A stretch of DNA of 64,000 nt from a virus (Duplodnaviria; Caudoviricetes). How positions within the stretch are numbered: position 1 is the stretch's first letter; each line of letters opens with the position of its first letter. Below, piece by piece: positions 13,075 through 56,694 of this stretch. The stretch covers positions 96,001 to 160,000 of the IMG/VR virus record IMGVR_UViG_3300035390_000014; one strand, given 5' to 3'. The notes beneath the pieces were generated by a model. The model worked only from the letters and a program-made list of their open reading frames with translations, did not search any database and was not told where the DNA came from. The position numbers and the translations under genes are program-made.

Positions 13075-13464
13075 GGGGATGAAATGGTATCGCTATAGGT
13101 AGGAATTTTATACTGCGCTTCGTGAATGATTGAGTCACGTTAAAATTGATCATGTAAATACAACTGCAGACAATTTCGCAGATGATTACGCACTAGCAAT
13201 AGCAGCGTAATTCGTTCTAGTTAGTTTATATCTTCGGATTAATATAGGGCGTCGACTTAGAAGATTAGAATTATATTGGTTGGACATAAGATAATTCCAT
13301 GTGACTTTATAATTTGAAACTACTACAGAAATTTATCCTTCAACAATGTTGTTTTGTCAATTCCACATATAGTGATTTGTTGAAGTATTAAAAATTGACT
13401 ATAAGCGTAGATGTATTCTTGGAATATACTATATACTCGAGTTCGACTCTCGACATCTCCACCA
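13075..13464 (+). ncRNA. ssrA: tmRNA
   Basis: GGGGATG/CATCTCC acceptor with G3:U70, A73-CCA, T arm CGAG-TTCGACT-CTCG; tag frame 13166-13210 (A)ADNFADDYALAIAA-stop. Confidence 0.93.
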
Positions 13465-21396: not shown

Positions 21397-21490
21397 GAAC
21401 GAACGAAAAAGGCACGGGATCACGTGGTCCCACGCAAAGTCACAGGTCTTTTATAAAGGATAAAAGATGGCTGGTCTACCGAAAACGTTC
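21397..21490 (+). promoter_or_regulatory. c-di-GMP-I (GEMM) riboswitch, copy 2
   Basis: Same core; P1 GAACG/CGTTC; P2 and P3 loops differ from copy 1. Confidence 0.8.
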
Positions 21491-28025: not shown

Positions 28026-28697
28026 ATGTTATGTGATTATGGTTGTGGGCAAGAAGCTAGATATACAATAGGTAATGGTAAATTATGTTGTTCTAAACAT
28101 TATAATTCATGCCCGGAACTTAGAAGAAAGAATAGTAATTCTGTTAAAAAAAGTAGAGAAAAAGAAAAAGAGTTGGGAATAAAAAGATATTCTCCACAAT
28201 ATTTAAAAGTTAAATGTCAATATTGTGATAGAATAACTACACAAAACATGATAAAAAGACATGAAAAATTTTGTTATTTAAATCCATTAAATATAAAATT
28301 ATGCCCTGTTTGTAATAAACCAGTTAAAGATTATAAAAATGCAACTACATGTTCTCAACAATGTGGTCAAAGATATTTCAGAAGTATGTTTGATAAGGTT
28401 AGACGTGAAAGAAATATGAGTTGGATTGATGATTTATATGATGGTGGTTCACATTATAAGACTATTTGTTTTAGATATCATGAGAAAAAATGTATTATAT
28501 GTGGTGAAGATATAGCAGTATCTGTTCATCATTATGATGGAAATCATGATAATAATAAACCAGAAAATTTAGTTCCTTTATGTATGAATCATCATGTTTA
28601 TATACATAGTACAGTTGAAAATATGTATATTATAAAAGAATGTGTTGATGAATATGTTAAGGAATATTGTAAGAAAAACAATTTAATGCACCTGTAA
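28026..28697 (+). CDS. HNH homing endonuclease
   Basis: CDYGCG module; VHHYDGNHDNN.PENLVPLCMNHH; stop lies inside tRNA-Thr. Confidence 0.85.
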   Translation: MLCDYGCGQEARYTIGNGKLCCSKHYNSCPELRRKNSNSVKKSREKEKELGIKRYSPQYLKVKCQYCDRITTQNMIKRHEKFCYLNPLNIKLCPVCNKPVKDYKNATTCSQQCGQRYFRSMFDKVRRERNMSWIDDLYDGGSHYKTICFRYHEKKCIICGEDIAVSVHHYDGNHDNNKPENLVPLCMNHHVYIHSTVENMYIIKECVDEYVKEYCKKNNLMHL

Positions 28698-28857: not shown

Positions 28858-28949
28858 GGGTTCGTCACCTAGATGGCCGATGGTACCAGACTTTTAATCT
28901 GGAGCGGATATCAATCCCCACGTGAGTTCGAATCTCACCGAACCCACCA
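28858..28949 (+). tRNA. tRNA-Lys(UUU) with long variable arm
   Basis: GGGTTCG/CGAACCC, CCAGA-CTTTTAA-TCTGG, variable stem GGAT/ATCC; 92 nt. Confidence 0.85.
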
Positions 28950-30694: not shown

Positions 30695-30783
30695 TGCGCT
30701 ATAGAGTAGTTGGTCAACTCACTTGTCTCATAAGCAAGACTCCCTAACCGGAGACGTAGGTTCGAATCCTACTAGCGCTCCCA
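30695..30783 (+). tRNA. tRNA-Met(CAU) with long variable arm
   Basis: CTTGT-CTCATAA-GCAAG, variable stem CTCC/GGAG, 1:72 mismatch, CCA. Confidence 0.85.
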
Positions 30784-34892: not shown

Positions 34893-34980
34893 GGTAGGAA
34901 TGTTGAAATTGGTAAACATGCGAGGTTGTGATCCTCGTGCCTTAAGTGGTTTGCGGGTTCGAATCCCGTTTCCTACCCCA
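34893..34980 (+). tRNA. tRNA-His(GUG) with long variable arm
   Basis: G-1:C73, CGAGG-TTGTGAT-CCTCG, Leu-like D arm, variable stem GCC/GGT. Confidence 0.88.
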
Positions 34981-47363: not shown

Positions 47364-47446
47364 GCAGAAGTCGGTCAACGGTAGATCACCTGCCTTCCAA
47401 GCAGGCGCTTTAAGCATTGCGGGTTCGATTCCCGTCTTCTGCTCCA
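47364..47446 (+). tRNA. tRNA-Gly(UCC) with long variable arm
   Basis: GCAGAAG/CTTCTGC, U73, CCTGC-CTTCCAA-GCAGG, 13-nt variable region GCT/AGC. Confidence 0.88.
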
Positions 47447-51667: not shown

Positions 51668-51743
51668 GCCGGTGTAGCTTATTGGGAGAGCCGAGAACTC
51701 TAAATTCTTGATTGAGTAAGTTCGATCCTTACCATCGGCACCA
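51668..51743 (+). tRNA. amber suppressor tRNA (CUA)
   Basis: GCCGGTG/CATCGGC, GAGAA-CTCTAAA-TTCTT, canonical D and T arms, A73-CCA. Confidence 0.88.
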
Positions 51744-54860: not shown

Positions 54861-55835
54861 ATGAGTAGATTAATTTATGTTCCTCAATATCCAGCTAACA
54901 TGCGCTATCAGGAATGGTGGCTTTCTGAGTTCACTAAAGAGTTTGAAAAAGAATATGATGAAGTAGAAATTCTTGGACTAAATTGGTTGGTACAAAATAT
55001 GGATTATGTTAGTAGTGAATATGATACAGCCATGTTTTCTCCAATTAATAAAGCTGCTAGATTTGAAACATCACAAATGGATGACTATATGGCTCTTGAT
55101 ATACGTGATGATGATACCCTATTTCTCTCTGACATAAGCTTTCCTGGGTTGTTTTGTAATGTCCTATACCATAAGACGTGTCCAAAAATGTACGCGTTCT
55201 GCCACGCCACATCGCTTAATAAGTATGATTATTTTGCACCTATGCGTAAACATAAAAAGAAAATTGAATTAAATCACGCTCAGTTATTTGATGGTATTTT
55301 CTTTGGAAGTTATTATAGTATAAATAAAACTAAATGGTCTGAAAAAGGTATTAAGTGTCATAGAGTAACACTACCAGCGCCTCCAGAAGATTTAATTAAA
55401 CCAGTCCATGTCAGTGATTATAGAGATATTGATATTGTTTCTGTTTGTAGACCTTCTATTCAAAAGGTAAATAAAAAACTTGAGAAAAAAGTTGAACAAG
55501 CTTTAGGTATTAAAATACATAGAGAAGAAGTTAATACTTGGGAACAGTATAATATTTTACTAGCCAGATCAAAAGTATTACTAATTTCGACAAAAGAAGA
55601 CACTTTTAACTACACGATCATGGATGCTATTAGATGTGGTTGTATTCCGTTGGTTCCTAATACATTATGTTTCCCTGAAATTGTTCCATTGTATTGGCGA
55701 TATAGTCATGCAGGAAATTTAATTTTAAAATTGCAACATATATTTAATGATAAAACATTTATTTTACCAGAAATGATTTGTCAAGATGAAGTTGATAATT
55801 TTTTTAAAAATATAATTAAAATAATGAAGAGGTAA
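54861..55835 (+). CDS. GT-B glycosyltransferase
   Basis: EDTFNYTIMDAIRCGCIPLVP...FPE. Confidence 0.7.
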   Translation: MSRLIYVPQYPANMRYQEWWLSEFTKEFEKEYDEVEILGLNWLVQNMDYVSSEYDTAMFSPINKAARFETSQMDDYMALDIRDDDTLFLSDISFPGLFCNVLYHKTCPKMYAFCHATSLNKYDYFAPMRKHKKKIELNHAQLFDGIFFGSYYSINKTKWSEKGIKCHRVTLPAPPEDLIKPVHVSDYRDIDIVSVCRPSIQKVNKKLEKKVEQALGIKIHREEVNTWEQYNILLARSKVLLISTKEDTFNYTIMDAIRCGCIPLVPNTLCFPEIVPLYWRYSHAGNLILKLQHIFNDKTFILPEMICQDEVDNFFKNIIKIMKR

Positions 55836-55839
55836 ACAT

Positions 55840-56694
55840 ATGTTATGTGATTATGGTTGTGGTAAAGAGGCTACTCACCAATTTAAAAACGGTAAGTGGT
55901 GTTGTTCTAAACTATCAGTACATTGAGCTAAAATAGTTTCTATTAGGTCAATAGAAATAAAGAAAACTGCTAATACTCAAAAACATAAAGATAAAATGAG
56001 TAAAGTAATTAAAAAAATATGGAAAGACCCAAATCATATTTATAATGATAAAGAACATCAGAAAAAGAGAAATAAAATCTTAAGTAAAGCTCATTCTAAA
56101 CCAGAAACAAAAAAACTTAGATCAAAAATAATGAAAGAAAAATGGAAAGATAAAAATTCTGGATTGAATAACTCTAAAAGAAGTGAAGGAGCTTCAGAAT
56201 CAATGATAAAAGTTTGGAGTTCTCTTAGTGAAGAAGAAAGAAATCAGTGGTGTATTAACTGTTCTGTAGGATGGACTGAAGAAAAAAGGATAGAAAAATC
56301 TAAAGTTGCTAAACAAAAATGGTCAGAAGATGATTATAGAATTAAAATGAAAGATGGTAGACATAACTCTCCAAATAAGGAAGAAGAACAACTAGAAGAA
56401 TTATTAAATAATTTATTTCCCAATGAATATAAATTTGTAGGAAATTTTGATTTATTTATAAATGGTAAAAATCCAGATTTTGTAAATATTTTAAGTAAAA
56501 AAGTTATAGAATATTTTGGTTCTTATTGGCATAGTGAATTAATGACAGGTGAAAAAGAATATATTCATGAAAATAAAAGAATAAATCATTTTATAAATAG
56601 TGGATATAATTGTTTAATTATTTGGGATTTTGAATTTAAAAATAAGAAAGAACTTATTAAAAAATTAAAAAAATTTAATCAGGAGATATTATAA
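55840..56694 (+). CDS. Zn-module plus PD-(D/E)xK endonuclease with in-frame TGA (candidate selenoprotein or pseudogene)
   Basis: GAGG RBS and ATG 55840, MLCDYGCG..CCSKLSVH-TGA(55924)-AK, in frame with track ORF 55996; NPDF..IEYFGSYWH. Confidence 0.65.
55937..55957 (+). promoter_or_regulatory. candidate bacterial SECIS element
   Basis: TTTCTATT-AGGTC-AATAGAAA hairpin starting 11 nt after the TGA. Confidence 0.5.

Follow-up and report, generated by a model that had tools for sequence, protein, structure and literature searches.

A candidate selenocysteine site in a jumbo-phage homing-nuclease gene, with two further UGA-for-cysteine sites in the same genome

Bacterial selenoprotein genes such as E. 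coli fdhF, and the selD and fdh genes of Desulfobacterota, carry an in-frame UGA that aligns with Cys in homologues and is followed directly, within the coding sequence, by a SECIS hairpin that starts about 11 nt downstream. Bacterial Sec insertion is site-specific and relies on factors of the cell (PMC13449736). Among viruses, the review consulted here names only the glutathione peroxidase homologues of molluscum contagiosum virus and fowlpox virus as selenoproteins, in which the UGA of a virus gene is read as Sec by the host machinery and, in fowlpox, the SECIS lies in the coding region (PMC8310308); those are captured cellular selenoenzymes with eukaryotic SECIS elements. In phages, stop codons are also read as sense where TAG or TGA is recoded genome-wide with a phage suppressor tRNA. 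A further system of relevance is that of the EDxHD / PD-(D/E)XK homing endonucleases, represented by I-Bth0305I (PDB 3r3p) and Vsr. Here we describe a phage gene of the latter type whose reading frame is interrupted by a single UGA that is probably read as selenocysteine.

The window analysed is a stretch of 64,000 nucleotides, bases 96001-160000 of the 202.7-kb IMG/VR record IMGVR_UViG_3300035390_000014 (Caudoviricetes), which is about 65% complete, has about 29% G+C, and comes from sediment metagenomes. The gene starts at ATG 55840 (+), which is preceded at a distance of 6 nt by the Shine-Dalgarno-like GAAGAGGT (55826-55833). The first 28 codons (55840-55923; MLCDYGCGKEATHQFKNGKWCCSKLSVH) encode an N-terminal zinc knuckle with C3, C7, C21 and C22, and are followed by TGA at 55924-55926, after which the same frame (55927-56694) stays open for 255 more codons to TAA at 56692-56694. 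The downstream part contains NUMOD3-like repeats and a C-terminal nuclease domain (56482-56691). The hairpin consists of TTTCTATT (55937-55944), the loop AGGTC (55945-55949), and AATAGAAA (55950-55957); it starts 11 nt after the TGA, extends to 9 bp with a G.U pair at 55936/55958, and places GGU at +20 to +22 after the UGA. The stem is A/U-rich and weak, folding at -6.1 kcal/mol, and 2 of 200 shuffles of the local 36 nt fold as well. The paralogous modules at 28026, 19804 and 14617 read CCSKHYNSCP, CCENHYSKCP and CCNKYESRCP, respectively, and the TGA aligns with their invariant last Cys. The observation of the earlier note, namely a TGA at a conserved Cys of an endonuclease with a SECIS-like hairpin behind it, is therefore confirmed, and so is its comparison with E. 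coli fdhF, in which the UGA is followed by 17 nt and then by the loop AGGUCU at +18.

To define the protein family, we searched the read-through product against sequence and profile collections. Searches of the region by blastn and tblastn against 50,697 deposited phage genomes gave no match, and the single read-through protein gave nothing significant against Pfam and PHROGs. By contrast, a profile built from an alignment of homologues hit the mobile intron protein 3r3p at E 1.6e-7 and Vsr (1vsr, 1cw0, 1odg) at about 4e-3; DUF559 and Vsr were found in homologues, and six of 16 homologues carry NUMOD3 repeats. Full-length orthologues P0003 (59% identical), P0004 (54%) and P0005 (63%) start with the same knuckle and read CCSKLSVH-C-P or close variants. 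They are syntenic in related contigs, lying after a protein of about 320 aa and before a 168-aa protein and a UDG-fused DNA polymerase B, from which the gene is separated by one to three small genes in four related contigs. The gene is thus a free-standing homing endonuclease of the Vsr-like / EDxHD type, which differs from I-Bth0305I in an extra N-terminal CxxxC...CC...C knuckle, shared with HNH-type paralogues of the same genome, and in the UGA. Cleavage activity and target were not assayed, and neither structure nor complex prediction was carried out. The gene is variably present, since a 90-95% identical relative in sample X4 lacks it at this place (between 55801 and 56758), and in the P0005 lineage it is frameshifted inside the nuclease domain (253 + 49 aa; loci L029:6001-6908, L030 and L031); both observations fit a mobile gene that can decay.

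Next, we compared the site with its orthologues at the DNA level. Orthologues P0003, P0004 and P0005 have TGT-CCA where the window has TGA-GCT, so that the Pro after the Cys, conserved in these orthologues and in the three paralogues, is Ala here. The closest one at this level (locus L026) has no hairpin (-0.9 kcal/mol). The 39 nt after the TGA differ from L026 at about half of their positions, against roughly 20% elsewhere as counted by eye, and these changes create the 5' arm of the stem. Conservation of TGA and hairpin among homologues had been set out in the earlier note as a test of its proposal, and for the nuclease this test failed: no TGA was present at the site in P0003-P0016 or in 16 knuckle loci from IMG/VR, and pattern scans for knuckle genes with TGA at the same position returned only out-of-frame chance matches in IMG/VR (11 hits) and in metagenome contigs (5 hits). 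With no second TGA-bearing lineage for comparison, the 255 intact downstream codons leave it undecided whether this part of the nuclease gene is under purifying selection. A perfect hairpin of 8 bp or more at SECIS-like spacing follows about 1% of all TGA triplets in this genome (43 of 4477 on the + strand), and the looser motif of 7 or more pairs with a GGT loop follows 0.8% (71 of about 8950 on both strands), so the hairpin alone is only mildly unusual. On these facts alone, a recent TGT-to-TGA nonsense mutation in a decaying homing endonuclease gene would be the better reading, with the hairpin a chance feature of an A/T-rich, fast-evolving linker (P0004 and P0005 carry a 19-residue insert there) and no full-length protein made.

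The genome context changes these odds. TGA is an ordinary stop in this phage: coding cover under table 11 is 93%, TGA ends 69 of 313 greedy-selected genes, and DNA polymerase B ends at TGA with the same 1091 aa as its orthologues. A first coding-score screen for in-frame TGAs was swamped by antisense frames and was replaced by a greedy ORF screen that ignored structure, which found only three mid-gene TGAs with protein-like sequence on both sides. Besides the nuclease, these are a 95-codon PAAR spike-tip gene on the + strand, 6826 bases before the window's start (record positions G000:C1:88888-89175; locus L032:888-1175), with TGA at 89029 (codon 48; WAAHC-TGA-GIPCHGG), and a zinc ribbon before the primase on the minus strand (G000:C1:69528-69283; locus L033:783-1028), with TGA at 69345 completing its second CxxC (CPDCG...DCIG-TGA-NH). 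Read through, the zinc-ribbon frame ends in an ATGA overlap with the primase start, so recoding could also control translational coupling to the primase. All three TGAs are at Cys positions: the knuckle Cys is invariant, PAAR homologues have TGC or TGT at this codon in 67 of 80 cases, and the zinc-ribbon homologue P0178 reads CQNC. All three are also followed by a hairpin with GGU in the loop, which is GCCAUGG-AGGUU-CCCUGGC with GGU at +19 for PAAR, the AGGUC-loop hairpin with GGU at +20 for the nuclease, and AAUGUAU-GGUU-AUACAUU with GGU at +22 for the zinc ribbon. In 169 kb of related phage loci the motif with open flanks occurs three times, and two of those are the orthologous sites. The combination of the hairpin with a conserved-Cys position and with two more such sites in the same genome is, in our assessment, not chance. 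Genome-wide reassignment of TGA or TAG is rejected. For TGA, only three mid-gene sites are involved, each with its own hairpin, and no tRNA(UCA) is present; this is site-specific recoding, not a code change.

The two other sites are maintained by selection. Two proteins of this comparison, P0058 and P0177, translate only with TGA read as sense. Locus L034, a zinc-ribbon orthologue of 69% identity, has the same TGA and an identical hairpin. Among PAAR orthologues, L035 (72%) has the same TGA with a single change in the hairpin and identical wobble bases, while L048 (67%) has TGA at the same codon followed by a different hairpin. Conversely, Cys-bearing homologues lack the hairpin: it is found in 0 of 79 non-TGA PAAR homologues, including those that encode the same GIPCHGGSLA peptide, and is absent from the Cys-bearing zinc ribbon L036 as well as from the nuclease locus L026. 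Downstream of the PAAR TGA, synonymous sites are near saturation (pS 0.73) while pN is 0.22, giving dN/dS of about 0.1 between two TGA-bearing orthologues; that half of the gene has therefore been translated throughout their divergence. The PAAR site is the strongest Sec candidate in the genome. A different case is the PAAR gene of an unrelated, more G+C-rich phage (L126:601-891; IMGVR_UViG_2657245172_000002), which has TGA at another conserved Cys (CTGHG-TGA-WP) with the rest of the frame intact but no GGU-loop hairpin, and which is either a broken gene or another recoding site.

We then asked who might read the UGA. All 26 tRNA genes and the tmRNA gene of the record lie in the window. No tRNA(UCA), no tRNA-Sec above threshold, and no selB or selD were found in this incomplete record, in which selA was not sought, so any recoding must use host factors. 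Rfam searches matched no SECIS or tRNA-Sec family at the three sites or in the window, which we do not count as evidence against because the library may not model such bacterial SECIS elements well. The best hit of the tRNA-Sec model, a long-variable-arm tRNA(UCC), was checked as a hidden tRNA-Sec and is not one, since its anticodon loop reads CUUCCAA. Four tRNAs (28858-28949, 30695-30783, 34894-34980 and 47364-47446) have long variable arms but anticodons for Lys (UUU), Met (CAU), His (GUG) and Gly (UCC), a shape unusual for these specificities, and their identity and charging were not established. A tRNA with anticodon CUA (51668-51743; amber suppressor type, labelled tRNA-Pyl by ARAGORN) is present although TAG ends 42 of 313 genes; its role was not examined. 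The tmRNA (13075-13464; RF00023, 94 bits) is of the one-piece kind with tag peptide ADNFADDYALAIAA, and a c-di-GMP-I riboswitch aptamer (21401-21483; RF01051, 39.1 bits against a gathering score of 35) lies inside a more G+C-rich stretch of the phage.

A hint to the host came from a 530-aa Cache-type membrane sensor histidine kinase (G000:C1:90911-92503, + strand; locus L128:911-2503), which finds mainly Desulfobacterota among its best 80 hits in species-representative genomes, with 45-47% identity over the kinase core for the top hits, proteins of Desulfobacteraceae and other Desulfobacterota. This is not a host assignment, and with the host unidentified the availability of Sec machinery, a point the earlier note had asked to be confirmed, was left undecided. 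Five of five such genomes nevertheless have selB above the curated cut-off, and all their selD genes contain one in-frame TGA. Their SECIS loops start with GG at +19 to +24, including CCAGG-GGA-CCUGG of selD with the loop at +21 and GUGGCA-GGUCU-UGCCGC of an fdh-like gene of Desulfobacula with the loop at +19. The phage hairpins fit this pattern in both spacing and loop sequence. Specifically, the nuclease hairpin, with its loop starting 19 nt after the UGA, satisfies the bSECISearch criteria of an apical loop roughly 16-37 nt from the UGA with G among its first bases. It differs from the bacterial cases in that the phage has no Sec machinery of its own, the site is a structural zinc-knuckle Cys of a nuclease rather than a redox or Mo/Ni active site, the stem is weak, and the site is not conserved in orthologues.

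Together, these data lead us to propose that the gene 55840-56694 encodes one 284-residue homing endonuclease in which codon 29 is recoded rather than terminating. In this view the hairpin 55936-55958 would act as a bacterial SECIS, bound by host SelB.GTP.Sec-tRNASec, which delivers selenocysteine to the UGA in place of the last zinc-knuckle cysteine, while ribosomes that are not rescued release a 28-residue peptide. What our analysis demonstrates is the anatomy of the gene, the Cys/TGA correspondence, the appearance of the hairpin only together with TGA, and the maintenance under selection of two other UGA-plus-hairpin sites by this genome and its relatives; that SelB is the reader, that the residue is Sec, that the host (probably a Desulfobacterota sulfate reducer) supplies the machinery, and that the nuclease site works like the two conserved sites is inferred. 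We put about 0.6 on SelB/SECIS-type recoding of the nuclease site, most likely to Sec, whereas decoding of UGA at the PAAR and zinc-ribbon sites is much better supported and held with high confidence, although selenocysteine as the inserted residue is an inference at all of these sites. Selenium incorporation was not measured, and no expression or protein data exist. The interpretation of the earlier note as a selenoprotein is thus partly supported, mostly by evidence from outside the nuclease gene, and its suggestion that nuclease expression is tied to selenium status is possible but pure inference. Against our reading stand the singleton nature of the site in a decay-prone family, the weak stem, the Ala in place of Pro, and the fact that no selenoprotein with Sec as a structural zinc ligand is known to us.

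Several alternatives appear less likely. A fresh nonsense mutation, although favoured by the uniqueness of the TGA, is less likely: it would have to hit one of five conserved Cys codons in a Lys/Glu-rich gene that offers, by a rough estimate that was not computed, on the order of 150 possible nonsense changes, and to sit before a hairpin of the same type and spacing as the two maintained sites; moreover, no second lesion exists downstream, the strong RBS is kept at 55840, and the allele is identical in two samples. Readthrough without Sec, either by Cys insertion through a SelB-dependent noncanonical tRNA or by near-cognate Trp/Cys insertion helped by the hairpin, is improbable but compatible with the sequence evidence, which shows decoding and not the identity of the residue. 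SelB-dependent Cys insertion by special tRNAs has been described in bacteria, and the phage encodes its own tRNA-Trp(CCA) and tRNA-Cys(GCA); however, it has no tRNA with anticodon UCA, GGU loops at E. coli-like spacing are what SelB-bound SECIS elements look like, and Trp at a metal-site Cys would probably be non-functional. Still less likely is that the functional product is the 232-residue ORF called by gene callers from the internal ATG 55996-55998 (P0002), with the 28-codon ORF a leftover or leader peptide. The nuclease and NUMOD3-like parts do lie downstream of this ATG, but no RBS precedes it, the Met is an internal residue in P0003 and P0005 and Ile in P0004, and the upstream 28 codons are better conserved than the rest (about 82% identical to P0003 by our count, against 59% for the whole protein). 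Lastly, a sequencing or assembly error, which had been raised beforehand as a point to exclude, is very unlikely: the TGA and hairpin are identical in contigs of two sediment samples, X1 (the likely source) and X2, with no variant listed at 55924-55926, although contigs at a depth of about 9x and not raw reads were compared, and an error would not explain the accompanying hairpin.

Full-text searches found no report of a phage selenoprotein, in a library that is incomplete. The mechanism would be the known bacterial one; new would be the phage setting, the kinds of proteins involved, and Sec at or beside structural metal sites. Unlike the poxvirus peroxidases, these are genuine phage genes (spike tip, zinc ribbon, homing nuclease), in which the Cys-to-Sec changes seem to have arisen within the phage lineage. 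A broader reading, which we consider slightly more likely than not, is that a clade of sediment jumbo phages makes its own selenoproteins by borrowing the host's SelB/tRNASec system, with Sec replacing cysteines at or beside metal sites in a virion spike tip, in a zinc ribbon translationally coupled to the primase and, in this phage, in a homing endonuclease where the site arose recently; these would be a rare case of Sec at structural metal sites, and the UGA/SECIS could work as a gate that makes these products only in Sec-proficient, selenium-replete hosts. If confirmed, phage genes are systematically mis-called at such sites, as gene callers split or truncate all three genes here or read them with code 4. 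The host's Sec machinery would then become a host-range and nutrient-dependent factor for phage replication, since a spike tip and a primase-coupled protein depend on it, and the nuclease site would be a rare snapshot of a Cys codon and its SECIS being converted together.
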